Made by a program: the position numbers and the translations under genes. Source: an uncultured Chloroflexia bacterium (GTDB lineage: Bacteria > Chloroflexota > Limnocylindria > Limnocylindrales > CSP1-4). From it: DNA of 64,000 nt. Below the pieces are notes generated by a model. The model was not told the DNA's origin. It made no database searches and was given only the letters and a program-made list of their open reading frames with translations. Below, piece by piece: positions 14,037-52,201 of this stretch. The stretch's first letter is position 1, and every line of letters starts with the position of its first letter. The DNA lies in contig CAVSHH010000003.1 of the NCBI GenBank assembly GCA_963727585.1, forward strand, positions 738,493-802,492, read 5' to 3'.

Positions 14037-14048
14037 TCCCCACCGGGC

Positions 14049-14324: not shown

Positions 14325-14396
14325 CGATAGCCTGCCGTGTCCCCGTGCCACCTGTCTGTCATCGCCGATCGGGCTCCGGGGCCTACACTCGAGGGC

Positions 14397-15320: not shown

Positions 15321-15418
15321 CCCGGTCCCGGATGGCCCGTGGATTCGGGCCGGGCGCCCGGGTACAGAACGCCCATCGGCCCCTCGAAACGGCGCACCGG
15401 GCAGCCGACACTGCGCAC

Positions 15419-15961
15419 ATGGAGGGTGACCCGCGATCCGTGGTCGAGGCCCCGGTTCGGGGCGCCCTGGCGGGGGTGATGGGGCGAGGGCTGGCGCTCG
15501 TCGCGGCGTTTGTGATGCTCGCGGCGTGGCCGTTGCTCGCCAACCCAGCGGACGAGGTCCGTGACGCCGTCATCGTCCTCGGCATCGGCCTGCTGTTCGC
15601 ATACGCCATCTGGGTGCGCATCGCCCAGCATCTGGGTACCCGGCCCAGCCCCGAGGATCGGGCGTTGGCATGGGATCGCGCCAAGGAGGTTGACGGCGAG
15701 GACGCGACCATGGGCCTGATCGTTGCCGGCTGGGTGCCCGTCGGGCTCGTGCTCGCGATGGGTCTGATGCTGTGGCCCAACCTGACCGACGAGGACCCGG
15801 TTCGCGTCTCGATCTGGGTGATCATGGCCCTGCCTCCCACGACCGTCGGGTGGCTGCTGGCGACGACCGCCTGGCTCGATTCCTGTCGCGACGACCTCGC
15901 CCGTGCGGAAGCGGAGGCACAGATCCTGCTTCGCACCTACTGGGCGAATGTCGGCCACTGA
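15419..15961 (+). CDS. Hypothetical integral membrane protein (4 predicted TM helices)
   Basis: Hydrophobic helices in the + frame. The opposing 226-aa minus-strand ORF is Arg/Pro-rich and looks non-coding. Confidence 0.5.
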   Translation: MEGDPRSVVEAPVRGALAGVMGRGLALVAAFVMLAAWPLLANPADEVRDAVIVLGIGLLFAYAIWVRIAQHLGTRPSPEDRALAWDRAKEVDGEDATMGLIVAGWVPVGLVLAMGLMLWPNLTDEDPVRVSIWVIMALPPTTVGWLLATTAWLDSCRDDLARAEAEAQILLRTYWANVGH

Positions 15962-16082
15962 CCGGATCGCAGGGGCGCGACACCCGGGCTCGGTCATCCG
16001 CGTTGCCGGCTCGCCCGGGTCGGCCCGCCACCCCGGCTCCCGGTCACGAGGCCCGCGGGCGACCGCTCCCTGTTAGCCTCGG

Positions 16083-32738: not shown

Positions 32739-32800
32739 CGCCGCGTGTCCGGGCGATCCGCCGGATTGCCCCGGCAGGGAACCTGTCTCACAATCGCCCC

Positions 32801-33088
32801 GTGACCGATCCTGCCGCCCTGCCCGATCCTGCCGCCCTGCCCGTCGCGTCCACCATCACCGTCTACGGCGCGGACTGGTGCGGCGACTGCCGGCGGACGA
32901 AGCGCTGGCTCGAGCGCTCCGGTCTGGCCTGGACGTGGATCGACCGCGACGCGGACCCGGCGATCAGGGCAATGCTCGCGGACGCGGGCTATCTCGCGAT
33001 CCCGGTGGTGGTCGTGCCCGGCGGCGGGGTGCTGGTGGAGCCGTCGGACGCGGAGCTGGCAGCCGCCATCGGGGCCGGCGACGCCTGA
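32801..33088 (+). CDS. Glutaredoxin-like/NrdH-like small redoxin (CGDC active site)
   Basis: ITVYGADWCGDCRR...AIPVVVV thioredoxin-fold signature. N-terminus has an in-frame 18-bp duplication (DPAALP x2). Confidence 0.7.
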   Translation: MTDPAALPDPAALPVASTITVYGADWCGDCRRTKRWLERSGLAWTWIDRDADPAIRAMLADAGYLAIPVVVVPGGGVLVEPSDAELAAAIGAGDA

Positions 33089-36467: not shown

Positions 36468-37382
36468 CTATCCGAACAACGCCTCGACCGACAGGTACCG
36501 CTCGCCGGTGTCGTAGCTGAAGGTCAGGATCCGCGAGCCGTCCGGGACCTGCGGAAGGAGCTCGGCGACCGCGGCCAGCGAGGCGCCCGACGACACGCCC
36601 ACCAGGAGCCCCTCCTCGCGCGCAGCCCGCTGCGCGTACGCGAACGCGTCCGGGGGCTCCACCTGGAGGATCCCGTCCAGCAGGTCCGTGCGCATGACGC
36701 CCGGGACGAACCCGGCGCCGATGCCCTGGATCGGGTGGGGCCCCGGCTCGCCGCCGGACAGGACCGCGGACAGCGTCGGCTCGACGGCGTACACCTTGAG
36801 GTTCGGCCAGCGGGGCTTGAGCACCTCGGCGACCCCCGTGATGTGGCCGCCGGTGCCCACCCCGGTGACGATGTAGTCAAGCCCGTCGGGGAAGTCGCGG
36901 GCGATCTCCTCGGCCGTCGTCCGGCGGTGGATATCGACGTTGGCCGGGTTGTCGAACTGCATCGGGACCCAGGCGCCGGGGGTCTGCTCGGCGATCTCGT
37001 TCGCACGCGCGATCGCCCCCTTCATCCCCAGCTCGCGCGGCGTGAGGTCGAGCTCGGCGCCGTACAGCTGCATCAGCTTCCGCCGCTCGATCGACATCGA
37101 TTCGGGCATGACGAGGATGAGGCGGTATCCCTTGATGGCGGCCACCAGGGCGAGGCCGATGCCGGTGTTGCCGGAGGTGGGCTCGACGATGACCGAGCCG
37201 GCCTTGAGCACGCCGCGCGCCTCGGCGTCCTCGATCATCGACAGGCCGATGCGGTCCTTGATCGAGCCGCCAGGATTCTGGCGCTCCAGCTTGGCCCAGA
37301 CGGTGACCCGGGGGTCATAGAGCTTGTTGATCCGGACATGCGGCGTGTTGCCGATGACCTCGAGCATGGAGTTGAAGGGCAC
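36468..37382 (-). CDS. cysK: Cysteine synthase A (O-acetylserine sulfhydrylase)
   Basis: [11 protein letters not shown]-lysine motif; [10 protein letters not shown]; GTGGHITGV. Confidence 0.9.
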
Positions 37383-37395
37383 GGGACGCTTCCTT

Positions 37396-38295
37396 TCAGA
37401 TCACGAAATCGACGGAATCGACAACCTCGGCCACGGTCCGGACCCGGACCTGGCTCTGGTGGTACACGAGCGAGTTGGCCGGTACCGAGTGGGTCAGCCA
37501 CACGTTGCCGCCGATGACCGAGTCGGCGCCCACGACGGTGTCGCCGCCGAGCACCGTGGCGTTGGCGTAGATCACCACCCGGTCCTCGATGGTCGGGTGG
37601 CGCTTGGTCCCCGACGCCTGCTTGGTCACCGAGAGCGCTCCGAGGGTGACGCCCTGGTACAGCTTGACGTTGTCGCCGATGAGCGCGGTCTCACCGATCA
37701 CGACGCCGGTGCCGTGGTCGATGCAGCAGCCGCGGCCGATCGTGGCGCCGGGGTGGATGTCGACCCCGGTCCGACCGTGGGCGATCTCGGAGATGATGCG
37801 CGGCACCAGCGGGATCCCGGCGCGGTGCAGGGTGTTGGCGATCCGGTGGAAGGCCAGGGCGAGAAATCCGGGGTAGGCGAGAACGACCTCCATCGTCCCG
37901 TGCGCCGCCGGGTCGCCTGCCTCGATCGCCTCCGCGTCGAGGGTCACCTGCTCGTGGATCTCGGGCAGGGCGAGATGGAAGTCGTGCGCCAGCTCCTCGG
38001 GCGTCGCCGGCAGCTTGTCGCGGAGCGACGCGAGAACCGGGACCAGCGCCCGGCAGCGGGCGTCCAGCTCGGCATGAATGCCGGCCGGGGTCCGCGGCGC
38101 GTGGCGGCCGTCGGGGAACAGCAGCGAGACGATGCCGTCGGCGAAGGCCCCGACCTGGTCGCGGTCGGGGAGCCGGTGGAACATCGCCGCCTCATCCTCG
38201 GCGATGTGCGCGGAGAGGGCCGCGAGGTCGGCTGGGTGGGCAATCTCCTCGTCATGCGGATGGACGAAACGACGTGATGACATGGGCAGCACCAA
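37396..38295 (-). CDS. cysE: Serine O-acetyltransferase
   Basis: Left-handed beta-helix hexapeptide repeats and the SAT N-terminal domain. Lies 14 nt upstream of cysK. Confidence 0.85.
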
Positions 38296-39699: not shown

Positions 39700-39891
39700 C
39701 CCGGCCGGGCTTCGCCGCCCACCGGCCGAGCTTCGCCGCGCCCCGCCCGCGGCGTCGGGGACGGACCGTGACCTCCGGCAAGGCTCCACGAGCGCTCCAC
39801 TGTCACTCCATGTCCCAGGCGGATCGTGAGCTCCGGCGCCGAGATCCGGGCCGCCGCACTTGCGGCACACCAGCAAGGACACCTGCCGACG

Positions 39892-40548
39892 ATGAAGCGT
39901 CTCGCCATCCCGCTCACCATCGGGGCCCTCGCCGCGCTTGGCGCGGTCGCAGCCGTCTCGGCCGCCGATCCCGATGCCACGCCGGCCCCGGTCGCCACCG
40001 AGGCCCCGGTCGCCACCGCCCCGGTCGCCACCGAGGCCCCGGCGGCAACTCCCGCACCCGTCGCCAATCCGCCCCTGGTCCGTGGTCCGGACACCGGCAC
40101 GCTGAGCGGCATCCTGGGGATCAGCCAGTCCGAGCTCGCCCAGCTGCGCGCCCAGGGCCAGACGCTTGCCCAGGTCGCCGAAAGCCGGGGCATCGATCCC
40201 CAGCGGCTGATCGAGGCGCTGGTCGCCCAGTGGGGCGCCCGCATCGACGCCCGCGCCGCCGCCGGAGCACTGACCGCCGACCAGGCCGCGGCGCTCAAGG
40301 CCAATCTCCAGGTCGAGGCCAAGGCCATGGTCAACCAGGCCACGCCGGGCGGCATGCGCGGTGGCGCCGTCGGTGCAGGTCCGGGAGCCATGGGCGGCCG
40401 CGGGCCAGGCAACGGCACGGGCGGCGGCATGGGCCGCTGGAGCACCGACGACGGCGGCCAGCCCCGGGGCATGGGCCGCTGGGGCAACGGCTCGGGCGCC
40501 GGGAACGGCACCTGCCCGATGACCACTGCTCCGGGCACCGCTTCCTGA
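39892..40548 (+). CDS. Secreted protein with a Thr/Pro/Ala-rich linker and a Gly-rich C-terminus (hypothetical)
   Basis: Signal peptide MKRLAIPLTIGALAALGAVAAVSA. Sits upstream of the two-component system. Confidence 0.5.
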   Translation: MKRLAIPLTIGALAALGAVAAVSAADPDATPAPVATEAPVATAPVATEAPAATPAPVANPPLVRGPDTGTLSGILGISQSELAQLRAQGQTLAQVAESRGIDPQRLIEALVAQWGARIDARAAAGALTADQAAALKANLQVEAKAMVNQATPGGMRGGAVGAGPGAMGGRGPGNGTGGGMGRWSTDDGGQPRGMGRWGNGSGAGNGTCPMTTAPGTAS

Positions 40549-40616
40549 TCCGTCTCGAGGCGGGACGGCCGAGCGAGCTTGACGCTGCCCGGCCGTTCCC
40601 GCCTATGCTCGCGACC

Positions 40617-41324
40617 ATGCCGCGCATCCTGGTCGTCGACGACGAGCCCCACATCACCGAGGTCGTGGGGGCATATCTGGTCCGCGATGGCCACGAGGTG
40701 CTCACGGCGGCCGACGGCGACGCCGCTCTCGACCTCGCCCTCAACGGTTCGCCCGATCTCGTGGTTCTCGACGTGATGCTCCCCGGGCGGGGCGGGTTCG
40801 ACGTCCTGCGAGCGCTGCGCCGGGCCGGCAGCGAGGTGCCGGTCGTGATGCTGACGGCGCGCGACGATGTGATCGACCGGGTGGCCGGCCTCGAGATCGG
40901 CGCCGACGACTACGTCACCAAGCCGTTCGAACCCCGGGAGCTGGTCGCCCGGGTGAGCGCCATCCTGCGCCGCACGGGCGGGATCGCGATCGCTCCGCTG
41001 GCGGCAGCCGGCGACGGCCCCGATCCCACCCGCTGGTTCGACCTGCACATCGACACGGCCGCGCGCGAGGTGCGCCGCGGTCCGGGCGCGCTGCCCCTCA
41101 CCCGGGCCGAGTTCGACCTGCTGGTGGCGTTCGTGGAGCGGGCCGGCATCGCCCTCACGCGCGAGCAGCTGGGGGAGCGGGTGTTCGGCGAGGCGTTCGA
41201 CGCCTTCGACCGCACCATGGACAGCCACGTCAAGAACCTCCGCCACAAGCTGGGCTCTCGGCCCGGTGGCGGCGCCTACATCGAGACCGTGCGCGGGGTC
41301 GGCTACCGGGGCGCCCGGCCGTGA
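40617..41324 (+). CDS. OmpR-family response regulator
   Basis: Receiver domain (ILVVDDE...DLVVLDVMLP) plus a winged-helix output domain (VETVRGVGYR). Confidence 0.9.
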   Translation: MPRILVVDDEPHITEVVGAYLVRDGHEVLTAADGDAALDLALNGSPDLVVLDVMLPGRGGFDVLRALRRAGSEVPVVMLTARDDVIDRVAGLEIGADDYVTKPFEPRELVARVSAILRRTGGIAIAPLAAAGDGPDPTRWFDLHIDTAAREVRRGPGALPLTRAEFDLLVAFVERAGIALTREQLGERVFGEAFDAFDRTMDSHVKNLRHKLGSRPGGGAYIETVRGVGYRGARP

Positions 41325-42472
41325 GCCTCCGGGTCCGGCTGGCCGCGGCGATGGCCCTGGTGGCCGTGCTGACAGCTGCGGCCGTCGCACTGGCGGCGCC
41401 GGCCATCGTGGGGCGCGGGTTCGCCACGGCACTGTCCGGGGTGACCGGCGTGCCGGGCGCCGGGCCCGGCGTCGGGCCCGGCGGGATGGGCAATGGCATG
41501 GGACCCGGCGGGGGCGCGGTCGGCGGCATGGGTCCGGGCGCCATGTACTGGCAGCAGGTCCAGCAGGACACCATCGTTGCCCTGCTCCTGGTTGCGGCCG
41601 GGGCCGCCCTGATCGCCTCGCTGGTCGGGGTCGTGATCGCGGCCCGGACCGTGCGACCTCTCGGCCGGCTCCAGGCCACCGCCGACGCGGTCGCGCGCGG
41701 CGACCTCGACGCCCGGTCCGGGCTCGGGGACCGTACCGACGAGATCGGAGCCCTCGGCCGCTCGTTCGATGCCATGGCGGCCGACCTGGGGGCGACCGAG
41801 GCCGCCCGGCGGCGGTTCTTCGCCGACGCGGCCCACGAGCTCAAGACGCCCCTCTCGGTGATCGATGCGACCACGTCCGCCGTGATCGACGGCGTCTACC
41901 GGCACGAGGACCGGCATCTCGGGACGATCCGCGACCAGGCCCGGCTGCTGAGCCGGATCGTGGACGACCTGCGCACCGTGTCGCTCGCCGAGACCGGGTC
42001 GCTGCCGCTCCGGTCGGAGGTCGTGCCGCTGGCGCCGGTCCTGGCCGCCGTGGCCCAGGATCTGGCCGCGCGCGCATCGGTCGCGGGCGTGCGGGTCGAC
42101 GCGACTGACGCCGGCGTTCTCGCCGTGCGCACGGACCCGGACCGGCTGCGCCAGGTGCTCAACGCGCTGGGCGACAACGCCCTCCGCTACGCAGGCCCAG
42201 GGGGCTGGATCCGGCTGTCCGCCGCCGCGGCGACCCCGGGACGAGTGTGGCTGTCGGTGGTCGATTCCGGCCCTGGCATCGCGCAGGCGGACCTGGCCCA
42301 CGTGTTCGATCGCTTCTACCAGGCCGACCAGGCGCGCGACCGGGCGACCGGGACCAGCGGACTGGGGCTCGCCATCGTGCGGGCCCTGGTCGAGGCGTCC
42401 GGTGGGCACGTCCGAGCCGCCAACGAGCCCGGGGCCGGCGCCCGGATCGACCTGGACTTGCCGGCCGCCTGA
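41321..42472 (+). CDS. Sensor histidine kinase (HAMP + HisKA + HATPase)
   Basis: H-box AAHELKTPLSVI. N, G1 and G2 boxes present. Two TM helices flank a periplasmic loop. Confidence 0.85.
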   Translation: MSLRVRLAAAMALVAVLTAAAVALAAPAIVGRGFATALSGVTGVPGAGPGVGPGGMGNGMGPGGGAVGGMGPGAMYWQQVQQDTIVALLLVAAGAALIASLVGVVIAARTVRPLGRLQATADAVARGDLDARSGLGDRTDEIGALGRSFDAMAADLGATEAARRRFFADAAHELKTPLSVIDATTSAVIDGVYRHEDRHLGTIRDQARLLSRIVDDLRTVSLAETGSLPLRSEVVPLAPVLAAVAQDLAARASVAGVRVDATDAGVLAVRTDPDRLRQVLNALGDNALRYAGPGGWIRLSAAAATPGRVWLSVVDSGPGIAQADLAHVFDRFYQADQARDRATGTSGLGLAIVRALVEASGGHVRAANEPGAGARIDLDLPAA

Positions 42473-42702
42473 GCCGGGCGTCCCGGCCGGCTCAGCTCGC
42501 GGGAGCGGCAGGCACCGGGTCGACGTGCCGGCGGCGCCACCGGCTGACGAGCCAGATCGCCGCGACCATCAGGGCCGCCACGTCGGCGAAGCCCAGGATC
42601 GCCTCCACCGGCGGCGACACGTCGCACGGTGCCGGTGACGTGACGATGCGCATGTCCGGTCGGGTCCGGGTCCCGGTCCGATCATGACCTCCGGCCCGAG
42701 TC

Positions 42703-42745
42703 TGATATATGTCACAAGCATATAGATATGCATGACAGACATCAG
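42703..42745. promoter_or_regulatory. AT-rich imperfect inverted repeat overlapping the ArsR start (putative ArsR/SmtB operator)
   Basis: tgatATATGTCAcaagcatatagATATGCATGACAgac in an otherwise 70% GC context. Confidence 0.5.
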
Positions 42746-43135
42746 CGCATTGGCAGGAGCCACGTGTTCGACCCCGTCAGCGAGATTGACCTGATCCAGA
42801 TCGGGCTCATCCGGGCGCTCGCCGGCACACACCGGCTGCGGATCGTCCACCTCCTCGGTGCGCAGCGGATGGAGGTGCGGGAGCTGGCCCTGGCGCTCGA
42901 CCTCCCACAGGCCACTGTCTCGCAGAACCTCGCCGCCATGCGGGCCGCCGGGCTGGTGGAGGCGACCCGTGAGGGCCGTACCGTCACCTATCGCCTCGCC
43001 GATCCCGAGATCCTCGCCGCCTGCGACCTCATGCGCAGCGTCATCATGCGACGGCTCTCGGCCATGGGCAGCCTCGCGGCGGCCGCCAACGATGTCCCGG
43101 CCATTCCCCAACCCGCGCAGGTGACCCACCGATGA
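42728..43135 (+). CDS. ArsR/SmtB-family transcriptional regulator with a single Cys
   Basis: HTH (RLRIVHLLGAQRMEVRELALALDLPQATVSQNLAAMRAAGLV). Alternative GTG start at 42764. Confidence 0.8.
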   Translation: MHDRHQRIGRSHVFDPVSEIDLIQIGLIRALAGTHRLRIVHLLGAQRMEVRELALALDLPQATVSQNLAAMRAAGLVEATREGRTVTYRLADPEILAACDLMRSVIMRRLSAMGSLAAAANDVPAIPQPAQVTHR

Positions 43136-43542
43136 GCGACGCGCCTCTCAACCTCGTCCTGTTCTCCGGGACCGCCGACAAGCTGCATGCGGCGGCCACG
43201 CTGGCCGCCGGCGCGGCGGCCATGGACCGGCCGGTGAACATCCTGCTCCAGTACTGGGCTCTCGACGCGTTCCGCACCGAGCGGCTGGCCGAGAGCCACG
43301 GCCTGGCCTGGGACAGCACCGCCGACGGTGCCAGCCGCCCGGTCAACGGTGTCCGATCCATTCCCTGGCTGGACACGTTCCGGATGGCCAAGGAGCTCGG
43401 GACGATCTCGATCAACGCCTGCTCGGGCTCGCTCGACACGCTCGGGATCGAGGTCACCGAGCTCGACCCGATCGTGGACTCCGCCGGCGGGATCGCCACC
43501 TTCCTCATGACCGCCGACGACGGTCAGATCGTCTTCATCTAG
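43132..43542 (+). CDS. DsrE/DsrF-like sulfur-relay family protein
   Basis: LVLFSGTADKLHAA...INACSGS. ATGA overlap with arsR. Confidence 0.65.
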   Translation: MSDAPLNLVLFSGTADKLHAAATLAAGAAAMDRPVNILLQYWALDAFRTERLAESHGLAWDSTADGASRPVNGVRSIPWLDTFRMAKELGTISINACSGSLDTLGIEVTELDPIVDSAGGIATFLMTADDGQIVFI

Positions 43543-43570
43543 CCCGCGTCGGGAGCAGCAAGGAGCCCCA

Positions 43571-43939
43571 ATGGCCGACAACGAGAAGCTGGTGTTCATG
43601 GTCACGCACGGTCCCGACCACCCGGAGCACGCCACGATCCCGTTCGTGATGGCGGCGGCCGCGCTGGCGTCCGACGTGGCCGTCTCGATCGGCCTCCAGG
43701 CCGACGCCGTGACGATCGTCAAGCGGGGCGTCGCCGAGACCGTCGAGGCACCGGGCTTCCCACCCCTGGCCAAGCTGCTGGCCGACGTCCGCGAGCTGGG
43801 AGCCTCCCTGCTCGTCTGCAACCCGTGTCTCAAGAGCCGGGGCATCGCCCCGGACGAGCTCGTCGAGGGTGCCGAGATCGTCGCGGCCGCCCGCTTCGTC
43901 GTCGAGCTGACCTCTGCCACCAACGCGCTGTCCTACTAG
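43571..43939 (+). CDS. DsrE-family protein (TusD/DsrE-like, Cys-containing)
   Basis: LVFMVTHGPDHPE...LLVCNPCLKSRG. Confidence 0.7.
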   Translation: MADNEKLVFMVTHGPDHPEHATIPFVMAAAALASDVAVSIGLQADAVTIVKRGVAETVEAPGFPPLAKLLADVRELGASLLVCNPCLKSRGIAPDELVEGAEIVAAARFVVELTSATNALSY

Positions 43940-43954
43940 GAGGATTCCAGCACC

Positions 43955-44215
43955 ATGACCACCACCGCGACCGAGCTCGAGGCCATCACCGACGCTGCTG
44001 TCATCGACGCACGGGGCACCGCCTGCCCCGGCCCGCTGCTCGAGGCCAAGAAGGGCATGACCGGCGTTCCCGTGGGATCGACGATCGAGATCTGGTCGAC
44101 CGACCCCGCCACCAAGAACGACATCTCGGCCTGGTCCGCCAAGGTCGGGCACGACTTCCTGGGCGTGCTCGAGGCCGACGGCTACGACCGCGTGTTCGTC
44201 GTCCGCCGCAAGTAG
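43955..44215 (+). CDS. tusA: TusA-like sulfurtransferase
   Basis: IDARGTACPGPLLEAKKGM, the canonical CPxP motif. Confidence 0.8.
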   Translation: MTTTATELEAITDAAVIDARGTACPGPLLEAKKGMTGVPVGSTIEIWSTDPATKNDISAWSAKVGHDFLGVLEADGYDRVFVVRRK

Positions 44216-44300
44216 CCAACCCATTCCAGGTCGCCGCGGCGCGCTGCCACTTCGGGGGAGGCGCGTCGCGGCGGCACCACCGCGCAGGAGCCAGGCGTCG

Positions 44301-44756
44301 ATGACCGTACCCGTCGCGACGGAGCCACCCGCACCCGGGGACACGTTCACCCCCCGGATCCTCGTGTTCTCCACCAACAACATCAGTGACCCCGGCATCG
44401 ACTTGGCCGGCAGCTCCCACATGCACTACTCGCCCGGCGTGAACGTGATCGGGCTGCCGTGCACCAGCGGCATCCGCCCATCGTGGATCGTCCACGCGTT
44501 CGAGGCCGGGTTCGACGGCGTGTTCATCGCCACGGACGGCGAGGAGTGCTCGTACCTGCCCGATTGCGCCAAGCGCTCCAACCGGATCGTGCAGAGCGCC
44601 CAGAAGACCCTCAAGGAGCGTGGCCTGGACGCCGGCCGCGTCCGGGTCGCGGCGATCTGCTCGGTCTGCGCCGAACCGTTCACCAAGCACATGGTCACGT
44701 TCGCCGAGGCGCTCAAGGGGATGGGTCACGCCACGTTCCAGGGAGCAGCCCGATGA
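44301..44756 (+). CDS. MvhD/FlpD-like hydrogenase iron-sulfur subunit domain protein
   Basis: PRILVFSTNN...GVNVIGLPCTSGIRPSWIVHAFEAGFDGVFIATDGEECSYLPDC resembles pfam02662. Confidence 0.6.
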   Translation: MTVPVATEPPAPGDTFTPRILVFSTNNISDPGIDLAGSSHMHYSPGVNVIGLPCTSGIRPSWIVHAFEAGFDGVFIATDGEECSYLPDCAKRSNRIVQSAQKTLKERGLDAGRVRVAAICSVCAEPFTKHMVTFAEALKGMGHATFQGAAR

Positions 44757-47527
44757 CCGAGACGCTCGACGTCTGCGCGACGCGCGACGAGACGGCCCCG
44801 CTCGACTACGACGTGCTCGTGGTGGGCGCCGGCATCGGCGGCATGGAGTCCGCGCTCAAGCTGGGCGACATGGGCTACAAGGTCCTGCTCGTGGAGAAGG
44901 AGGCCTCGGTCGGCGGCAAGATGATCCTGCTGTCCAAGGTGTTCCCCACGCTCGACTGCGCGTCCTGCATCTCGACGCCCAAGATGGCCTCGACGATCCA
45001 CCACCCGAACATCACCCCCTACACCTACAGCCACGTCGACTCGATCAAGACCCGGGCCGACGGCTCGTTCACGGCCACGGTGATCCGCCAGGCCCGGTTC
45101 GTCGACATCGACGCCTGCACCGGGTGCCAGAAGTGCGAGACGGCCTGCACGGTCGCGGTGCCCGACCAGTTCAACGCCGACCTGGTCGCCCGGCGCGCGG
45201 CGCACATCACGTTCCCCCAGGCGGTGCCCAAGAAGGCCGTCATCGACCGCCAGGGCTCCTCGCCCTGCTCGTTTGCCTGTCCGGCCGGCATCGCCGCCCA
45301 CGGCTACGTGAGCCTCATCCGCAGCGGGCTCGACGAGGAGGCCTACCGGCTGGTGCTCGAGGCGACCCCGCTCGTCGGCACCCTCGGGCGCGCCTGCTAT
45401 GCGCCGTGCGAGGGCGAGTGCACCCGGGGCAGCCTGGAGGGAACGCTGCCGATCCGCCGTCTCAAGCGGTTCGCCTCCGACGCGCACGACGCGTCGGGCA
45501 GCGACAACGGGATCGAGCTTCCCGAGCCCAACGGCAAGCGGGTCGCGATCGTCGGCTCCGGGCCCACCGGCCTGACCGCCGCCTTCCAGCTCGCCCGCCG
45601 AGGATACGGCGTCAAGATGTTCGAGGCGGCCCCGGTCGCCGGCGGGTTCCTGCGCCTGGGCATCCCGGCCTACCGCCTGCCTGCCGCGGTCGTCGAGCGT
45701 GACATCGAGAACGTCACCGGGCTGGGCGTCGAGATCGCCGTCAACACCCCGGTCAATGACCCTGGCGCCCTGCGGGCCGACGGCTTCGACGCTGTGCTGG
45801 TGGCGACCGGCACCCACCGGTCGACCGGCCTGGGCGTGCCCGGCGAGGACCGCCTGGGTGTCATGGGCGGCACCGACTTCCTGCGCAAGGTCAACCTCGG
45901 CGAGCCGATGGATGTCGCCGGCAGGCGCGTGGTCGTGGTCGGCGGCGGCAACGTCGCGATGGACGCCGCGCGCGTCGCCCGCCGGCTGGGGGCCGCCTCG
46001 GTGACGGTCGCCTACCGGCGGTCGCGCGACGAGATGCCCGCCCACCACGTGGAGTCGGTGGACGCGGAGAAGGAGGGGGTCCAGTTCCGCCTCCTGGTCG
46101 CCCCGGCCGAGGTCATCGGCAACGCCGACGGTGCGGTCACCGGCCTTCGCTGCACCGAGATGCGTCTGGGCGCTCCCGATGCCTCGGGCCGCAAGTCGGT
46201 CCAGCCTGTCCCGGGCTCCTCGGTCACCATCGGCGCCGACCTGATCGTCGCCGCCATCGGCATGAAGCCCGACACCACCGCCTTCGGCGACCGGGTCGCG
46301 GTCCTGCCCAACGGGCGGCTCGCGGTCGACACGGCCAGCTGCCAGACCGCCGTCGAGCACGTGTTCGCCGCGGGCGACGCGGTCAACGGGCCCACCGACA
46401 TCACCCGGGCCGTGGGCGAGGGCCGCAAGGCCGCGTACCAGATCGACGCCTGGCTCAACGATCGCCCGTTCGACAGCTGGGACGACCGGCTGCCGGTGGT
46501 CGACAAGGAGCAGGTGCTGGCCCGCCAGAAGGCGTACACGGCCTCTGCGCCCACGCCCGACGGCATGGATCTGCAGCCGAGGCCCACCGACTTCCACGAG
46601 ATCGAGGCGCCGCTCACCGAGGCCGAAGCCCGGCGCGCCTCCGGCCGGTGCATCGACTGTGCCACCTGCTCCGAGTGCCGCGAGTGCGTCAACGCCTGCC
46701 CCGTCGACGGCTGCATCGACCTCCGCGCCACCGACCAGGAGCAGGAGATCCGGGTGGGGGCCGTCGTGGTCTCGACAGGGTTCAAGCTGTTCCCGGCCGA
46801 CCTCAAGCCGGAGTATGGGTACGGCGTGTACAACAACGTCATCACCGGGATGCAGATGGACCGGCTGCTCGCCCCGACGCGACCGTTCAACACCATCCTG
46901 CGGCCGGGCGATGGCAAGGTCCCCGAGCGGATCGCGTACATCCTGTGCACCGGGTCGCGCGACCAGACCGTCGGCAACCCGCTCTGCTCGCGCTTCTGCT
47001 GCATGTACTCGATCAAGCAGAACCAGCTGCTCATGGGGGCCCTGCCGCTGGCCGACGTGACCGTCCACTACATGGACATCCGCGCCCCCGGCAAGCGCTA
47101 CGACGAGTTCTACGAGCAGGCCAAGGCAATGGGCGCCAACTACGTGAAGGGCCGCGTCGCGGACGTCACGGAGACGCCCGCCGGCGACCTGGTGCTCAAG
47201 TACGAGGACATCGAGAACGGCGGCGCGATCACCGAGGCCGAGTACGACCTGGTCGTGCTCGCGGTGGGCGTGCAGCCCAACAGGGACGCCGAGCGGCTGT
47301 TCAACGTCGGCGAGCTGGCACTCGACGAGTGGCGGTACGTCGACGAGCCGGAGGAGGACGTGAACCCGGGCCAGACCAGCATCCCGGGCGTCTACGTGGC
47401 GGGGGCCGCGTCGGGCGCCAAGGACATCGCGGACTCGATCCTCCACGCGGGCGCGGCGGTGGCCCAGGTCGCCGCTCACCTCGAGCGGACCAAGCCGCTG
47501 CCGACGATCGAGATGGTGCCGGCATGA
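44753..47527 (+). CDS. HdrA-like flavoprotein with an inserted GltD-like NAD(P)H-dependent oxidoreductase module (QmoA-like + GltD)
   Basis: N-terminal HdrA FAD domain (VLVVGAGIGGMESAL...EKEASVGGKM), then a GltD Fe-S domain and two Rossmann folds (KRVAIVGSGPTGL...VVVVGGGNVAMD...AAGDAV), then the HdrA C-terminal ferredoxin and CSRFCCMYS signature. Confidence 0.8.
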   Translation: MTETLDVCATRDETAPLDYDVLVVGAGIGGMESALKLGDMGYKVLLVEKEASVGGKMILLSKVFPTLDCASCISTPKMASTIHHPNITPYTYSHVDSIKTRADGSFTATVIRQARFVDIDACTGCQKCETACTVAVPDQFNADLVARRAAHITFPQAVPKKAVIDRQGSSPCSFACPAGIAAHGYVSLIRSGLDEEAYRLVLEATPLVGTLGRACYAPCEGECTRGSLEGTLPIRRLKRFASDAHDASGSDNGIELPEPNGKRVAIVGSGPTGLTAAFQLARRGYGVKMFEAAPVAGGFLRLGIPAYRLPAAVVERDIENVTGLGVEIAVNTPVNDPGALRADGFDAVLVATGTHRSTGLGVPGEDRLGVMGGTDFLRKVNLGEPMDVAGRRVVVVGGGNVAMDAARVARRLGAASVTVAYRRSRDEMPAHHVESVDAEKEGVQFRLLVAPAEVIGNADGAVTGLRCTEMRLGAPDASGRKSVQPVPGSSVTIGADLIVAAIGMKPDTTAFGDRVAVLPNGRLAVDTASCQTAVEHVFAAGDAVNGPTDITRAVGEGRKAAYQIDAWLNDRPFDSWDDRLPVVDKEQVLARQKAYTASAPTPDGMDLQPRPTDFHEIEAPLTEAEARRASGRCIDCATCSECRECVNACPVDGCIDLRATDQEQEIRVGAVVVSTGFKLFPADLKPEYGYGVYNNVITGMQMDRLLAPTRPFNTILRPGDGKVPERIAYILCTGSRDQTVGNPLCSRFCCMYSIKQNQLLMGALPLADVTVHYMDIRAPGKRYDEFYEQAKAMGANYVKGRVADVTETPAGDLVLKYEDIENGGAITEAEYDLVVLAVGVQPNRDAERLFNVGELALDEWRYVDEPEEDVNPGQTSIPGVYVAGAASGAKDIADSILHAGAAVAQVAAHLERTKPLPTIEMVPA

Positions 47528-49326
47528 GCGAGCAGCAGCTGCCCGCCGGCACGCGGCCGGTCGTCGCGGCGCCCGAGGGCAACAGCGAGGGTGGGGCCGG
47601 CGGACGCCGGATCGGCGTCTACGTCTGTCACTGCGGCGGCAACATCTCGGACTACGTCGACGTGGACAAGGTCATCGACGGGATCAAGGACGACGGCGAC
47701 GTCGTGGTGTCCCGGACCACGATGTTCGCCTGCTCCGACGCGTCGCAGCAGGAGATCGAGGCCGACATCAGGACCAACGACCTCGACGGCCTGGTCGTCG
47801 CCTCGTGCTCGCCCAAGCTCCACACCTACACCTTCCGGGGAGTAGCCTCGCGAGCCGGGCTGAACCCCTACGAGTACACCCAGGTCAACATCCGGGAGCA
47901 GTGCTCCTGGGTCCACACCGACGACCACGAGGGCGCCACGGCCAAGGCCACCGCGCTCGTCGCGGCCGGCATCGGGCGGACACGGAACACCGTGCCGCTC
48001 GAGCCGATGGTCGTGGACACGATCCCGCACACGCTCGTCGTCGGGGGTGGCATCGCCGGTCTCCGGGCTGCGATCGGCCTGTCCGACATCGGTCTCAAGG
48101 TCACCCTCATCGAGCGCGAGCTCGAGCTGGGTGGCTGGGTCCGCGAGCTGGGCCCGATGTACCCCCACGACCGCAAGGGCGCCGACCTGATCGAGGGCCT
48201 GGTCGCCGAGGTCCACAAGCGCGAGGCGATCACCGTCCTCACCGGGACCGAGCTGGCCGGCAAGTCCGGCAGCTTCGGCAACTACCGCGTCAGTCTCCGG
48301 GTCGGGGGCGAGGGCGCAGGCACGATCGACGTCGCGGTGGGCACGATCGTCGTGGCCACCGGCTTCGACGAGTACCGGCCCGAGGAGGGCGAGCTCGGCT
48401 TCGGGCTCGACGGTGTCGTCACCCTGTCGCAGTTCAAGGCACTGGTGGACGGATCCGAGCGGGAACGCCTCGCCTGGAACGGCCGCCCGGTCCGCAGCGT
48501 GGCCTACGTCTATTGCGTCGGCAGTCGCGGCACGGCCGGCTGCGCGAACCAGTACTGCTCCCGGTTCTGCTGCGCGGCAACGGTGCAGACTGCGGTGCAG
48601 GTCTCGGGCCTGGACCCGTCTATCCGCCAGTTCCATCTCTACCGCGACATGCGGACCTACGGCAAGTTCGAGCCGCTGTACACCGAGGCCCGCGACCGCG
48701 GGTCGGTGTTCCTCAAGTTCGACAACGACGAGCCACCGGTGGTCGCGACGGCTCCTGGCGGATCGCTCACCGTGACCGTCCGGGACCTGCTCACCGAGCG
48801 GACCCAGCTCGATCTGCCGGTCGATCTCGTGGTCCTCGTCACGGGCATGGTCCCGCGCGAGAACCAGGGGCTGGTCGACATCCTCAAGCTGCCGGCCGGC
48901 AGCGACGGGTTCTTCAACGAGATCCATCCCAAGCTGCGGCCGGTCGAGACCGTGGTCGACGGCGTGCTGATCGCGGGCGCCTGCCAGGGCCCCAAGACGT
49001 CGGCCGAGTCGGTCACCTCGGGCCTGGCCGCCGTGACCCAGAGCGCCGCGATCCTCAAGAAGGGCTTCACCGAGCTCGATCCGCTGGTGGCGGTCGTCGA
49101 GCCCGATGCCTGCACGGCCTGCGGCGACTGCCTCACGGCGTGTCCCTATGACGCGATCTCGATGGCCGAGGGGGCCGACCGGCACATCGCGGCCATCAGC
49201 GCCACCGGCTGCAAGGGCTGCGGCGGCTGCGTGCCGATCTGTCCCGAGAACGCGATCGACCTGCTCGGCTACACCGACGCCGAGATCACCTCGATGATCG
49301 AGGGCCTGGTGGAGGTGCCCGTCTGA
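47524..49326 (+). CDS. hdrA: Heterodisulfide reductase subunit A-like protein (HdrA/QmoB-like)
   Basis: N-terminal Cys cluster VYVCHCGGNI...MFACSD...VVASCSPK. FAD domain LVVGGGIAGLRAA. C-terminal 2x[4Fe-4S] CTACGDCLTACP / CKGCGGCVPICP. Confidence 0.85.
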   Translation: MSEQQLPAGTRPVVAAPEGNSEGGAGGRRIGVYVCHCGGNISDYVDVDKVIDGIKDDGDVVVSRTTMFACSDASQQEIEADIRTNDLDGLVVASCSPKLHTYTFRGVASRAGLNPYEYTQVNIREQCSWVHTDDHEGATAKATALVAAGIGRTRNTVPLEPMVVDTIPHTLVVGGGIAGLRAAIGLSDIGLKVTLIERELELGGWVRELGPMYPHDRKGADLIEGLVAEVHKREAITVLTGTELAGKSGSFGNYRVSLRVGGEGAGTIDVAVGTIVVATGFDEYRPEEGELGFGLDGVVTLSQFKALVDGSERERLAWNGRPVRSVAYVYCVGSRGTAGCANQYCSRFCCAATVQTAVQVSGLDPSIRQFHLYRDMRTYGKFEPLYTEARDRGSVFLKFDNDEPPVVATAPGGSLTVTVRDLLTERTQLDLPVDLVVLVTGMVPRENQGLVDILKLPAGSDGFFNEIHPKLRPVETVVDGVLIAGACQGPKTSAESVTSGLAAVTQSAAILKKGFTELDPLVAVVEPDACTACGDCLTACPYDAISMAEGADRHIAAISATGCKGCGGCVPICPENAIDLLGYTDAEITSMIEGLVEVPV

Positions 49327-49571
49327 TGACTGTCGCGAACCGGGACATCCGGGAGGTGATCCGGGAGGAGCCCGTGATGCGTCCCAGGATCCTTGCCGCG
49401 CTGGCGGGCGGACCGCTGTCCGTGCCCCAGATCGCCGAGGCGATCGGCGCCCCGACCCACGAGGTCGTGTTCTGGGTCATGGGGATGCGCCGCTACGGCT
49501 GGCTGGCGGAGATCAAGGGGTCCGACGCCGACGGCTTCTTCACCTACGAGACCACGGGGCGGAACCACTGA
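49326..49571 (+). CDS. Small winged-helix DNA-binding-like protein (hypothetical)
   Basis: 81 aa; start/stop overlap both neighbours; helix-turn-helix-like PRILAALAGGPLSVPQIAEAIGAPTHEV. Confidence 0.45.
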   Translation: MTVANRDIREVIREEPVMRPRILAALAGGPLSVPQIAEAIGAPTHEVVFWVMGMRRYGWLAEIKGSDADGFFTYETTGRNH

Positions 49572-50800
49572 TGACCGCGACCACCGTTCCGGCCGGCAGC
49601 ACGCCGGCCGCACCCGCCGCCGTCCGGCTCGACCTCGGGCTGTATCCCGAGATCCAGCGGTACGGGGCCAGCGACATTTCCGCCTGCTTCTCGTGCGGGA
49701 CCTGCTCCGCGACCTGCCCCATGAGCCAGACCGACGGAACCTTCCCGCGGCGGATCATCCGCTACGCCCAGCTGGGCATGAAGGACGCGCTGCTGAGCTC
49801 CAAGGAGCTCTGGACCTGCTACCAGTGCGGCGAGTGCGCGGAGACCTGCCCCACCCAGGCCGACCCGTCCGAGTTCATGGCCGCGACCCGGCGCTACGCC
49901 ATCGCCGGCTATGACAGGACCCGCCTGGCCGCCACGATGTACACGCGCCCCGTCCTGGCAACCGTCGTCGCCGTCGCCCTGGCGCTGTTCTTCGCCGCGT
50001 TCATGCTCTCGGCGCGCGGGCCGATGGACTCGGCCACGCTCGCGATCTTCGAGTGGATCCCGTCCGAGCTGATCCACAACCTGGGCATCGTGCTCATGGT
50101 CCTGGTCGTGCTCGCCGGGGTCGTCGGAATCGCCTCCATGGCACGTGGCATCGCCCGGCGCGAGGGCGAGAGCCTACGCTCCGTGCTGGGCTCCCGGGCC
50201 GCGCTCGCGCGGACCGGCCGCGCGCTGGCGTACTCCGTGGGCCGCGAGTCCCTGGCCCAGGCCCGCTTCCGGGGGGAGTGCGAGGCCGACGACGTCGCCA
50301 TGGCGGTGCCCTGGTACCGCCGCCGGTGGCTGGTTCACGCGCTCGTCGTGTGGGGCTTCCTGGGGCTGCTCGCGGCCACCGGGCTGGACTACGGCCTGGC
50401 CCTCATGGGCATCAAGGAGACGGGGACGCCGGTGCCGATCTGGTATCCGGTCCGGCTCCTGGGCACGGTCGCCGGTGCGGCGCTGGTGTACGGATCCACG
50501 GTCCTGATCGTCGACCGCTACCGCGCGGCCAACCGGTCCGTGGTCAAGTCGACGACGGCCGACTGGCTGCTGCTGGCCCTGTTGTGGGTCACCGCGGTCA
50601 CCGGCTTCGCGATCGAGCTCGCGCTCTACCTGCCGGGCGCCCCGGTGTGGGGCTACTGGCTGTTCCTGGTCCACGTGGCGGTCGCGATGGAGCTCGTGCT
50701 CCTCGCCCCGTTCATGAAACTCGCCCACGCGGTGTACCGCCCCGTGGCCCTGTTCTTCGTGTCGCTGGCGCGAGAGCCCAAGGAAGGAGCCCAGGCATGA
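49571..50800 (+). CDS. HdrC-like 2x[4Fe-4S] domain fused to an HdrE/DsrM/NarI-like membrane domain (QmoC-like)
   Basis: CFSCGTCSATCP and CYQCGECAETCP, followed by 5-6 TM helices with conserved His. Confidence 0.75.
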   Translation: MTATTVPAGSTPAAPAAVRLDLGLYPEIQRYGASDISACFSCGTCSATCPMSQTDGTFPRRIIRYAQLGMKDALLSSKELWTCYQCGECAETCPTQADPSEFMAATRRYAIAGYDRTRLAATMYTRPVLATVVAVALALFFAAFMLSARGPMDSATLAIFEWIPSELIHNLGIVLMVLVVLAGVVGIASMARGIARREGESLRSVLGSRAALARTGRALAYSVGRESLAQARFRGECEADDVAMAVPWYRRRWLVHALVVWGFLGLLAATGLDYGLALMGIKETGTPVPIWYPVRLLGTVAGAALVYGSTVLIVDRYRAANRSVVKSTTADWLLLALLWVTAVTGFAIELALYLPGAPVWGYWLFLVHVAVAMELVLLAPFMKLAHAVYRPVALFFVSLAREPKEGAQA

Positions 50801-51288
50801 CCACGCAGTCGCTGCCGAAGGCGGCCCACGACCATCACGATCGACTCCTGGAGCAGGTGAACCGCATCCCCGATGCGGCCGACGCGCTCCTCGTCGACAA
50901 GCCGACCGAAGCGTGCGCCCGGATCGCGGACATCCGCCGGTTCCTCGAGGGGATGCTCCTGCCGCACATGGCCGCTGCCGAGCGGGCCCTGTATCCGGAG
51001 CTCGAGCGGATGTTCCAGAACCGGCACTCGATGGCGCCCATGCGCCGGGAGCACGACCGGATCCGCGAGCTGGCCGCGGAGTTCGGAGCCATGGTCGACA
51101 AGGACCGCGGCTCGGTGAGCCTGGGGCGCGTCCTGGCCATGCGCCGGGTGCTGTTCCAGCTGTACGCGTTGCTCAAGGTCCACATCGCCGAGGAGGAGGC
51201 CTACCTCCGGATCGTCGAGCACGGCGTGTCGGACGACGTGGCCGAGGCGGTGACCGCCGCGCTCGCGCATCCCGTGGCGGGCTCCTGA
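50797..51288 (+). CDS. Hemerythrin-like HHE cation-binding domain protein
   Basis: H...HxxxE...H...HxxxE spacing (HDHHDRLLE, HMAAAERALYPE, HDRIRE, HIAEEE). ATGA-coupled to the qmoC-like gene. Confidence 0.6.
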   Translation: MTTQSLPKAAHDHHDRLLEQVNRIPDAADALLVDKPTEACARIADIRRFLEGMLLPHMAAAERALYPELERMFQNRHSMAPMRREHDRIRELAAEFGAMVDKDRGSVSLGRVLAMRRVLFQLYALLKVHIAEEEAYLRIVEHGVSDDVAEAVTAALAHPVAGS

Positions 51289-51346
51289 GCCTGCTCCGGG
51301 TCAGGATCTCCGGGCCGGCTGGAGCGTGACGGACTAGGATGCGGGG

Positions 51347-51889
51347 GTGACCGACAACCCTCCTCCTGCCGACGCGGCCACGGCCGAGCTGGCAGCCGAC
51401 CCGGGGCTTGACTCGCTGCTCGCCACCAGCGAGGCATACCACGCGCTCCTGATGCCGCACGTTGACCGGCTCCTGACCCTCGCCGAGATGGTCGGGCGCG
51501 TGGATTGCTCGGCACTGCACGCGCTCTACAACGAGGAGTACCGGTTCATCTCCGGCCAGTACCTGCCGCACCAGGACGCCGTCGAGGCGAACCTGTACGA
51601 CCGGCTGGAGTCGATCATGGGACCGCGCCACACGATGGCTCCCATGCGCGAGGAGCACAAGATCGTCCGGGCCCTGATCGACGAGCTGGGCAGCTACCAG
51701 GTCCACGAGGACAACTGCAGCTGGGATGAGCTGCAGGGCCTCGCCGTCCGGCGTGTCCTGTACCGCCTGCACGCCCTGCTCAAGGTGCATCTCGCCGAGG
51801 AGGAGCAGTACCTCGCCGTCCTCGATCGGAGCCTCCCGGACATCGAGAAGGACGAGCTGGCGCGGCGCCTCGACCACGCCACGATCTAG
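51347..51889 (+). CDS. Hemerythrin-like domain protein (paralog of 50797-51288)
   Basis: Shares the TMAPMREEH...LHALLKVHLAEEE blocks with the upstream gene. Confidence 0.65.
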   Translation: MTDNPPPADAATAELAADPGLDSLLATSEAYHALLMPHVDRLLTLAEMVGRVDCSALHALYNEEYRFISGQYLPHQDAVEANLYDRLESIMGPRHTMAPMREEHKIVRALIDELGSYQVHEDNCSWDELQGLAVRRVLYRLHALLKVHLAEEEQYLAVLDRSLPDIEKDELARRLDHATI

Positions 51890-51910: not shown

Positions 51911-52201
51911 ATGGCCCGCTACCGCGTTCTTGGCTGGCGCGACATCCCCACCCAGGTCCAGGTCGCCGACCCTGCGGGGACGACGGTCAACCGCCAGATG
52001 GCGCGCTGGTTCATGCACGAGATCAGCCGGGTGACGATGCGCGAGGGCCTTGCCGGAACCGACGATTACCTCGCGGAGTTCGCGTGGAGCGACTGGACCG
52101 AGCGCGACGGGGAGCCGGAGGCCGTGGCCGACGCCGTCGTCGAGGAGCTGGCGGCCCGCTTCGGACGACGCGCCGACGGCCACACCGTGCGCGACGTCTG
52201 A
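51911..52201 (+). CDS. Hypothetical protein
   Basis: 96-aa ORF with coding-like composition; no family recognised. Confidence 0.35.
   Translation: MARYRVLGWRDIPTQVQVADPAGTTVNRQMARWFMHEISRVTMREGLAGTDDYLAEFAWSDWTERDGEPEAVADAVVEELAARFGRRADGHTVRDV

Follow-up and report, generated by a model that had tools for sequence, protein, structure and literature searches.

A conserved TusA-linked HdrL/HdrA operon of Chloroflexota as a variant of Hdr/Qmo-type complexes

We analysed an eleven-gene operon in a 64-kb stretch of DNA (the window) from an uncultured Chloroflexia bacterium (contig CAVSHH010000003.1). The genes encode an ArsR/SmtB-family regulator, the sulfur-carrier proteins DsrE2B-like, DsrE3-like and TusA, an MvhD-like [2Fe-2S] protein, two HdrA-type flavoproteins (HdrL and HdrA), a minimal winged-helix protein (wH), a QmoC-like membrane subunit and two hemerythrin-like proteins. 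We conclude that this locus is a conserved, abundant and uncharacterised variant of the Hdr/Qmo-type complexes, not a categorically new kind of system. It likely specifies an NADP(H)- and quinone-linked HdrA-type complex that is functionally tied to a TusA/DsrE relay. With moderate confidence, the operon as a whole is best explained as an ArsR-controlled sulfur relay combined with a membrane-anchored flavo-iron-sulfur oxidoreductase that would work by electron bifurcation or confurcation.

The window has a GC content of 72%, at which raw lists of open reading frames (ORFs) consist mostly of spurious frames. Genes were therefore called via third-position GC (GC3), using a GC3 frame plot and the translation of every candidate ORF including its junction, and domains were assigned by Pfam and NCBIfam profile searches of the called genes. 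This yielded eleven co-directional genes on the + strand at 42728-51889, listed here with the evidence that identifies each.

42728..43135, + strand: ArsR/SmtB-family regulator, 135 aa (Pfam HTH_5, 7e-10)
43132..43542, + strand: DsrE2B-like sulfurtransferase, 136 aa (Pfam DrsE_2, 2.3e-10)
43571..43939, + strand: DsrE3-like sulfurtransferase, 122 aa (Pfam DsrE, 1.6e-16)
43955..44215, + strand: TusA sulfur carrier, 86 aa (Pfam TusA, 2.9e-18; 65.9 bits against a cutoff of 28.6)
44301..44756, + strand: MvhD/FlpD-like [2Fe-2S] protein, 151 aa (Pfam FlpD, 2.5e-28, full profile)
44753..47527, + strand: HdrL-type subunit, HdrA with a GltD insert, 924 aa (Pfam Fer4_20 and Pyr_redox_2)
47524..49326, + strand: HdrA, 600 aa (phmmer against 5odc_A, 2.4e-103)
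49326..49571, + strand: minimal winged-helix protein wH, 81 aa (AF2 model and Foldseek)
49571..50800, + strand: QmoC-like membrane subunit, 409 aa (Pfam Fer4_8 and Nitrate_red_gam)
50797..51288, + strand: hemerythrin HHE-domain protein, 163 aa (Pfam Hemerythrin, 3.6e-15)
51347..51889, + strand: second hemerythrin-like protein, 180 aa (Pfam Hemerythrin, 1.4e-4; 22.8 bits, sub-threshold against a cutoff of 25.3)

A sequence-only reading of the same DNA had described eleven genes on one strand with 4-nt or 1-nt start/stop overlaps at six junctions, and translation of the ORFs found all of them: four ATGA overlaps of 4 nt at 43132, 44753, 47524 and 50797, and two 1-nt overlaps at 49326 and 49571. 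It had placed the start at 42703, which is a TGA; the first ATG of the ArsR gene lies at 42728. The profile searches bore out its gene identifications, the first of its two hemerythrin-like proteins clearly and the second only by the sub-threshold match listed above. A scan for the sigma-70 consensus found no promoter in the operon, and a terminator scan found a single terminator-like site, located inside a gene, where shuffled controls gave more; both scans are uninformative for a Chloroflexota genome of 72% GC. Start/stop overlap by itself is an ordinary operon feature. That the locus is more than a chance arrangement follows from its gene order, which is conserved despite unrelated flanks, and from its core, which recurs across many phyla.

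We compared all window proteins with the at least 80 HdrL loci listed by a profile scan of GTDB species representatives, taking 10 kb as the neighbourhood; the distribution figures given here describe this sample. The TusA-linked group consists of the window and 16 further loci. Among the matches listed, all 17 of these related loci, which span about ten phylum-level lineages, have TusA immediately upstream of MvhD, whereas homologues of TusA, DsrE and the 81-aa protein occur within 10 kb of none of the 64 other HdrL loci. The order TusA-MvhD-HdrL-HdrA is common to the 17, mostly with the 81-aa gene next. The loci come from Chloroflexia, Actinomycetota (including Thermoleophilia and Gaiellales), Ignavibacteriales, Aminicenantes, Bacteroidales, Zixibacteria, Deferrimicrobium, Acidobacteriota and a Thermoplasmata archaeon. 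In a neighbour-joining (NJ) tree of HdrL, computed without support values, all 16 TusA-linked loci for which inclusion was possible group in a single clade, well separated from the rest. ORF clustering showed that the only genes recurring in the loci of this clade are those for ArsR, the two DsrE types, TusA, MvhD, HdrL, HdrA, wH and the terminal gene or genes, and the flanks of the 16 related loci contain no conserved gene family beyond the module's own.

Close to the window, conservation extends to nearly the whole operon. Two loci with HdrL of 79% identity (L001 and L002) share with the window an identically ordered set of ten genes, which runs from ArsR to the first hemerythrin, lies between unrelated flanks and thereby defines the conserved unit; with a third locus (L003), this ten-gene order recurs at 72-79% HdrL identity, again with unrelated flanks. 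For HdrL itself, the databases contain more than 120 clusters with identities of 76-92%, and the named ones are Chloroflexota or Candidatus Limnocylindrales metagenome-assembled genomes (MAGs). Judged by such homologues, at 85-92% identity, the window most probably belongs to this lineage. In two loci from Actinomycetota MAGs (L004:8703-10001 and L007:8746-10001), the DsrE2B-like gene lies between mvhD and hdrL, that is, inside the redox core, and the DsrE3 and hemerythrin genes are missing; this variant could reveal which carrier is essential.

These comparisons show that the sulfur carriers belong with the Hdr-like core, as the sequence-only reading had proposed: TusA adjoins MvhD in every related locus, and a DsrE2B-like gene can sit within the core. 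It would be very surprising if the neighbourhood were fortuitous, with DsrE and TusA serving tRNA thiolation or molybdopterin synthesis and having no functional tie to the Hdr-like genes. TusA does have housekeeping roles, and around dsrE3, tusA and mvhD the operon shows gaps of 28, 15 and 85 nt in place of overlaps. Such an account is contradicted by synteny that is kept across phyla with different flanks, by the score of the window TusA against the NCBIfam equivalog of E. coli-type TusA (34.5, below its cutoff of 78) and by the carriers themselves, which match the types found in dissimilatory clusters, DsrE2B and DsrE3A.

The cysteines of the carriers are conserved. The DsrE2B-like protein has its best Protein Data Bank (PDB) match in 2qs7 (1.1e-15, full length), with the Cys of its 'ACS' motif aligned, and this active-site Cys is kept in seven loci. 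The DsrE3-like protein is closest to 3mc3, the DsrE3A-type protein of S. solfataricus, whose Cys aligns with Cys83; 2qs7 has been classified as an archaeal DsrE2B and 3mc3 as a DsrE3A-type protein (PMC11094781). Cys83 forms a CxPC motif with Cys86, and the pattern V/I-C-x-P-C is kept in five loci. This clade-conserved pair suggests a redox-active dithiol, which could play a DsrC-like role as a protein 'heterodisulfide' for the HdrB-type variants described below. In TusA, Cys24 lies within CPGP, and DARGxxCPGPLL is invariant in ten loci.

The redox core begins with MvhD, which also matches NCBIfam VhuD and the MvhD-like C-terminus of HdrA2; its gene ends 4 nt inside hdrL. HdrL is a composite protein. 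NCBIfam PRK12771 covers its residues 140-667 and HdrA2 its residues 630-911; residues 165-645 match the GltD modules of Stn/Nfn-type proteins (PDB 9bov, 8oh5 and 9n5u; Stn and NfnABC transhydrogenase subunits), and residues 634-912 match residues 288-567 of HdrA 5odc. HdrL keeps the thioredoxin-reductase-like FAD domain of HdrA and lacks both the N-terminal domain of HdrA and its C-terminal ferredoxin domain. The Cys motif of the inserted ferredoxin domain is invariant and split (Cys122-132 and Cys633-649) by a complete GltD/NfnB-type module of about 480 aa with two [4Fe-4S] clusters, FAD and a predicted NADP(H) site. A YRR motif (VAYRRSRDEMPA) is present in this module. In NfnB and DsrL-2, YRR makes room for the 2'-phosphate, and its presence is correlated with a specificity for NADP(H) (PMC7596348). 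Binding of NADP(H) by HdrL through its GltD/NfnB-type insert is thus a well-supported prediction from the sequence.

The second flavoprotein, the 600-aa HdrA, is of the long methanogen type (NCBIfam HdrA2, 455 bits). Aligned with 5odc_A, the structurally characterised, bifurcating HdrA of Methanothermococcus, its residues 29-258 correspond to 5-234 and its residues 268-595 to 317-649. Three domains are retained with conserved cluster ligands: the Cys-cluster domain at the N-terminus, the FAD domain, and the ferredoxin domain with two [4Fe-4S] clusters at the C-terminus. The inserted ferredoxin domain, about 80 residues of 5odc, is missing. In methanogen HdrA, the C-terminal ferredoxin domain is the ferredoxin site. 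The window resembles the methanogen MvhADG-HdrABC and Fdh-Hdr complexes (5odc, 7bkb and 8rvu) in these HdrA domains, in MvhD and in an HdrC-like domain encoded downstream. It differs from them in having no hydrogenase, no formate dehydrogenase and no HdrB with its site of two noncubane [4Fe-4S] clusters, in the relocation of the inserted ferredoxin domain, gone from the 600-aa HdrA, in split form into HdrL, and in a predicted membrane anchor.

Part of this core has been described before. The HdrL architecture was reported in 2009 in Desulfobacterium autotrophicum, always adjoining mvhD; such HdrL-MvhD systems are often near a second HdrA and were proposed to be NAD(P)H-linked (PMC2702500). The sequence-only reading, which recognised no described system here, thus needs a qualification, since its HdrA-GltD fusion is of this HdrL type, known from D. 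autotrophicum and other anaerobes as an HdrA with a GltD-like NAD(P)H/FAD/2x[4Fe-4S] insert and an adjoining mvhD. It held for the larger unit: in the literature we found neither the TusA-MvhD-HdrL-HdrA module nor its QmoC-type variant described, though an earlier mention is possible. The window HdrL differs from the other HdrL proteins in belonging to a separate clade, with a length of about 900 aa and 35-44% identity to the others. This clade is uniquely linked to TusA, DsrE and wH, here also to a QmoC-like anchor, and has no selenocysteine.

Downstream of hdrA, the gene for wH overlaps both hdrA and the qmoC-like gene by 1 nt. The protein has no Pfam or NCBIfam match. An AF2 model built with database homologues (pLDDT 86.5) has the topology H-H-H-H-E-E, and its best Foldseek matches are SmtB/ArsR/MarR winged-helix domains (E about 3e-4, TM about 0.65), in agreement with the earlier assignment of a winged helix-turn-helix protein. 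The gene lies between hdrA and hdrC/qmoC in 12 of the 17 loci, and the family comprises 2669 clusters; wH is a probable subunit or assembly factor. We also considered a DsrD-like activator of DsrAB and rejected it: DsrD does not appear in the top 50 fold matches, which are generic winged-helix domains of the ArsR/SmtB/MarR kind. This leaves a loose functional analogy.

The membrane subunit combines an HdrC-like domain with two [4Fe-4S] clusters and a six-helix NarI/HdrE-like cytochrome b domain. It contains two CxxCxxCxxxCP motifs (eight cluster Cys) and six hydrophobic segments, and matches HdrC 8rvv_C at 2.5e-14. His169, His256, His368 and His386 are invariant in six homologues, consistent with two predicted bis-His b haems. 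NCBIfam qmoC (NF038018) aligned over positions 2-360 of 360, at 211.6 bits against a cutoff of 300. The protein is therefore QmoC-like in architecture, as proposed earlier, and not a curated QmoC equivalog. Together with the HdrL module, these features make the predicted wiring from NADP(H) through the HdrL/HdrA flavins and QmoC to quinone well supported at the level of sequence.

This likeness raises the question of a divergent QmoABC, whose AprAB partner would be encoded elsewhere in the genome and which would work in sulfate reduction or sulfite oxidation, with the carriers merely feeding that pathway. The QmoC-like subunit does align end to end with NCBIfam qmoC and shares with QmoC the fusion of an HdrC-like 2x[4Fe-4S] domain to a six-helix di-haem cytochrome b. 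The two HdrA-type flavoprotein paralogues and the MvhD-type module, without HdrB, also recall QmoA/QmoB. We nevertheless regard this account as very unlikely. Besides the low qmoC score, the window MvhD is a separate upstream gene, whereas in Qmo it is fused to QmoB; the QmoA equivalent carries a GltD/NfnB NADP(H) module absent from canonical Qmo; and there are an extra 81-aa winged-helix protein and a linkage to TusA/DsrE. Pfam searches of the genes called in the 64-kb window detected no domain of the CCG/HdrB (PF02754), AprA/B, Sat, GcvH/LbpA or lipoate-ligase type, so that HdrB, LbpA and AprAB, which the sequence-only reading had reported as absent, are also not encoded just outside the operon. 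In the flanks of the 16 loci of the clade, too, only the module's own families are conserved, and there is no linkage to aprBA or sat. The conserved partners are TusA and DsrE, and the sister loci use HdrBC.

The end of the module alternates between two forms. A QmoC-like end is found in the window, in the three Chloroflexota-type loci (L001-L003), in both Actinomycetota MAGs mentioned above (L004 and L007) and in a low-GC genome (L013). Six other loci (L005, L006, L008, L014, L068 and L077) carry an HdrC plus HdrB-like end at the QmoC position: an HdrC-like two-cluster ferredoxin of about 103 aa is followed by a CCG protein of 322-343 aa (PF02754, down to 9e-13), and a DsrE3 gene often stands behind this pair. 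The HdrB-like protein of these loci keeps Cys only in its C-terminal CCG motif (e.g. L014:15075-16106). The N-terminal equivalent has lost them ('itvdPHttn' versus 'vvtcPHCfn' in 9ojn), so the protein would hold at most one noncubane cluster and be an unusual single-site HdrB.

In the NJ tree, HdrBC-type Actinomycetota are the neighbours of the nested QmoC-type loci from soil Chloroflexota and Actinomycetota, and HdrBC-type loci lie on both sides. The QmoC end is therefore probably a derived replacement, which the tree suggests was made once, with L013 as a possible further case. The QmoC-like quinone coupler and a soluble disulfide reductase of the HdrC/HdrB-like kind are, as judged from these sequences, two interchangeable output ends of one family. 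The sequence-only reading had envisaged a fundamentally HdrB-independent route. This did not hold, since the closest sister loci carry HdrC and a CCG HdrB-like protein at the QmoC position; the HdrB-less state appears to have arisen by a lineage-specific exchange of the high-potential end and not as an invention of its own. A QmoC/HdrBC alternation is known from the Qmo complexes of Gram-positive sulfate reducers, and the one seen here is analogous to it.

QmoC-like genes were also seen outside the TusA-linked clade. They precede HdrL in three loci (L027, L031 and L057), and in Solibacteraceae SbA4, a peat acidobacterium, one cluster (L021:8808-17987) encodes a QmoC-like protein, an HdrL/HdrA fusion of about 1500 aa, MvhD, MvhG (Oxidored_q6), MvhA (NiFeSe_Hases) and HycI. 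This cluster would specify a hydrogenase complex of the Mvh-Hdr type that is anchored in the membrane, linked to NAD(P)H and devoid of HdrB. It resembles the window in that a QmoC-like anchor is encoded beside HdrL/HdrA and MvhD. It differs in its third partner, a group-3c-type [NiFe] hydrogenase (MvhG, MvhA, HycI), in the fusion of HdrL and HdrA, in the lack of TusA, DsrE and wH, and in its QmoC, at an identity of only about 28%. Its HdrL belongs to a different HdrL clade than the TusA-linked one. Because the cluster joins MvhD to an MvhGA hydrogenase, it marks the MvhD side as the docking place of a third redox partner.

The carrier set invites a comparison with the sulfur-oxidising sHdr systems (types I and II), which likewise have TusA, DsrE2 and DsrE3 families beside Hdr-type genes, a cytoplasmic relay and an ArsR gene nearby. 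The operon might accordingly be read as a third sHdr type, in which sulfane sulfur delivered by TusA/DsrE would be oxidised and electrons passed to NADP+ and menaquinone. The same carrier trio occurs in shdr clusters and is experimentally tied to the sHdr system, and for type II an electron route to menaquinone through Etf/EMO has been proposed (PMC11094781); a related Chloroflexota organism strongly induces its sHdr/TusA cluster in persistence (PMC6776052). We consider a third sHdr type unlikely. The window lacks sHdrB1/B2, sHdrC1/C2, LbpA, the lipoate ligase and lipoate-assembly genes. Its HdrA has 600 aa, whereas sHdrA is a short protein of about 350 aa with one [4Fe-4S] cluster, and it matches methanogen HdrA at 2.4e-103 versus only 6.9e-30 for sHdrA 6tjr. 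The NADP(H) module and the QmoC-like anchor set it further apart, and it has no identifiable catalytic site for sulfur oxidation.

For the reading that we favour, an ArsR-controlled relay with a membrane-anchored oxidoreductase, a working scheme can be drawn. Under ArsR, the DsrE2B-like protein, the DsrE3-like protein with its CxPC motif and TusA would form a cytoplasmic sulfur relay. The oxidoreductase would consist of MvhD, HdrL, HdrA, the small winged-helix subunit and the QmoC-like subunit. HdrL and HdrA would form an HdrA-type flavin pair, like QmoA/QmoB or the HdrA dimer, with MvhD as a [2Fe-2S] bridge, and electrons would pass from the HdrC-like domain of the QmoC-like subunit over two b haems to the menaquinone pool. 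In flavin-based bifurcation or, in reverse, confurcation, NADPH would be the mid-potential partner. The high-potential arm would lead to menaquinone here, in place of a disulfide, and to HdrBC with a thiol/disulfide substrate in the sister loci. The low-potential arm might lead to ferredoxin at the C-terminal ferredoxin domain of HdrA, and/or to persulfide or thiosulfonate sulfur on TusA or DsrE3, served through MvhD. Docking of sulfur on the MvhD side is proposed because a hydrogenase or formate dehydrogenase docks there in related complexes. As a guess at physiology, the complex may carry out NADPH-driven reductive processing of carrier-bound sulfane sulfur in aerobic soil Chloroflexota, under reactive-sulfur stress or in sulfur scavenging, with hemerythrin as a lineage-specific, O2-related accessory. 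The role of the carriers and the direction of electron flow are thus what we infer from gene content, and the proposal of the sequence-only reading that bifurcation or confurcation couples sulfane sulfur to NAD(P)H as well as to quinone is plausible as pure inference.

Several points weigh against this scheme. Its main weakness is that the QmoC-type complex, having no CCG protein and no noncubane cluster, is left without a recognisable sulfur-reactive catalytic site. If TusA/DsrE are substrates of HdrB in the sister loci, their retention after the loss of HdrB is unexplained. DsrE3 is missing from both Actinomycetota QmoC-type loci, the ArsR protein is of a single-Cys form and not of the two-Cys, persulfide-sensing SqrR/BigR type, and the 85-nt spacing between tusA and mvhD would allow the two to be transcribed separately. 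The HdrL tree has no support values, and the distribution figures are based on a sample.

Another reading is a sulfur-independent NADPH:menaquinone:ferredoxin bifurcase, like EtfABCX or Nfn, beside which TusA/DsrE would supply sulfur for cofactors or Fe-S clusters or act in regulation. All redox modules for NADPH, quinone and ferredoxin are present without a sulfur-reactive centre, the C-terminal ferredoxin domain of HdrA is retained, and other HdrL clades work without TusA. Against this reading, TusA adjoins the core in 17 of 17 loci from about ten phylum-level lineages, a linkage that is unusual for a housekeeping sulfur donor. Two further DsrE families recur, one of them inside the core in two loci, and the sister loci carry an HdrB of the disulfide-reductase type. 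We therefore hold a sulfur-independent bifurcase to be possible though doubtful.

The opposite extension, that TusA-MvhD-HdrL-HdrA-wH is an unrecognised class of bifurcase with carrier-bound sulfur as a redox substrate at its MvhD/HdrA side, is equally tentative. The substrate would be a persulfide of TusA or DsrE3, a thiosulfonate, or a di- or trisulfide of the CxPC pair. In the QmoC branch, which abounds in aerobic soil Chloroflexota and Actinomycetota, NADPH oxidation would be split between the exergonic reduction of menaquinone and a low-potential reductive cleavage of the bound sulfur. If true, this would be a membrane-coupled, sulfur-processing bifurcase working in aerobes.

The regulator and the region upstream of it bear on the setting of the operon. 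The ArsR protein scores 74.7 bits against NCBIfam HTH_metalloreg (cutoff 55). Its gene is present in 8 of the 16 related loci, and its single Cys, Cys99, is kept in seven of these eight. A persulfide sensor of the SqrR/BigR kind was examined as an identity for it and rejected, because the two-Cys sensing pair is missing and the match to the BigR model, at 39 bits, stays below the cutoff of 155. The start of the ArsR gene is overlapped by the following feature.

42704..42741, no strand: AT-rich imperfect palindrome TGATATATGTCACAAGCATATAGATATGCATGACAGACAT, overlapping the annotated ArsR start

The palindrome includes an inverted repeat (I5) at 42715-42734, and an ATATGTC-type motif is also found upstream of the ArsR genes in two of the close Chloroflexota relatives (L001 and L003). 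By its sequence and position, it is a candidate operator/promoter region for ArsR. Taken together, ArsR, the palindrome and the carrier set suggest that reactive sulfur species control the operon and are processed by its products.

Between an upstream histidine kinase gene and ArsR, a minus-strand ORF of 53 aa (42492-42653) encodes a single, strongly hydrophobic stretch with RWRRRH behind it; the frame signal in GC3 fits a minus-strand gene, possibly for a small membrane protein. That kinase (HAMP/HisKA) and an OmpR-type response regulator are encoded at 39768-42472 (+) with a 4-nt overlap, ending 256 nt before the ArsR gene. The receiver domain of the regulator begins only at about residue 287 of a long ORF, and its true start is probably near 40605. 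The pair is not conserved beside the module in other loci.

At the 3' end, the first hemerythrin gene overlaps the qmoC-like gene by 4 nt and is found in this position elsewhere only in L001, L002 and L003. Homologues of the second hemerythrin-like gene occur in L001 and L003 on the opposite strand and a few kb off, which makes it accessory and not syntenic. Confined to the Chloroflexota branch, the hemerythrins look like an O2-related accessory. A twelfth co-directional gene follows after a 21-nt gap.

51911..52201, + strand: PF13769 ('Virulence_fact') protein, 96 aa (Pfam, 2.6e-14)

Its membership of the operon is uncertain, and it has no counterpart in any related locus compared.

Farther upstream in the window, about 4.4 kb before the operon, a PALP enzyme (CysK-like) and a serine acetyltransferase-like cysE are encoded with a 5-nt overlap (36468-38295, minus strand), and a glutaredoxin gene lies at 32714-33088 (+). 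These genes for sulfide-consuming cysteine synthesis near a carrier operon may be related to it or not; the neighbours are not kept in L001 or L003. The region 1722-18140 contains a DNA-repair/defence-like cluster with a NERD/UvrD-like helicase, an AddA-like UvrD/PD-(D/E)XK protein of about 1165 aa, two PIN-domain toxins, a DEAD-box helicase, a UvrD/HRDC helicase and an AspBHI-N/Mrr-type restriction endonuclease, the last in a stretch of lower GC content (8-10 kb, 66.6% GC).

What bacterial Hdr-type complexes use instead of the methanogen heterodisulfide is a long-standing question. The genetic tie of an HdrL/HdrA core to TusA and a CxPC-containing DsrE3, in about ten phylum-level lineages, offers testable candidates for the thiol or sulfur partner, and the alternation of HdrBC and QmoC offers a natural comparison for how the high-potential arm of HdrA is rewired so that the quinone pool takes over from a disulfide. 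Metagenomes of Limnocylindria/Ellin6529-type soil Chloroflexota very commonly contain the QmoC-type version (more than 120 HdrL clusters with an identity of at least 76%, and the 2669 clusters of the marker wH); these bacteria are abundant and uncultured, and their energy and sulfur metabolism is poorly known.

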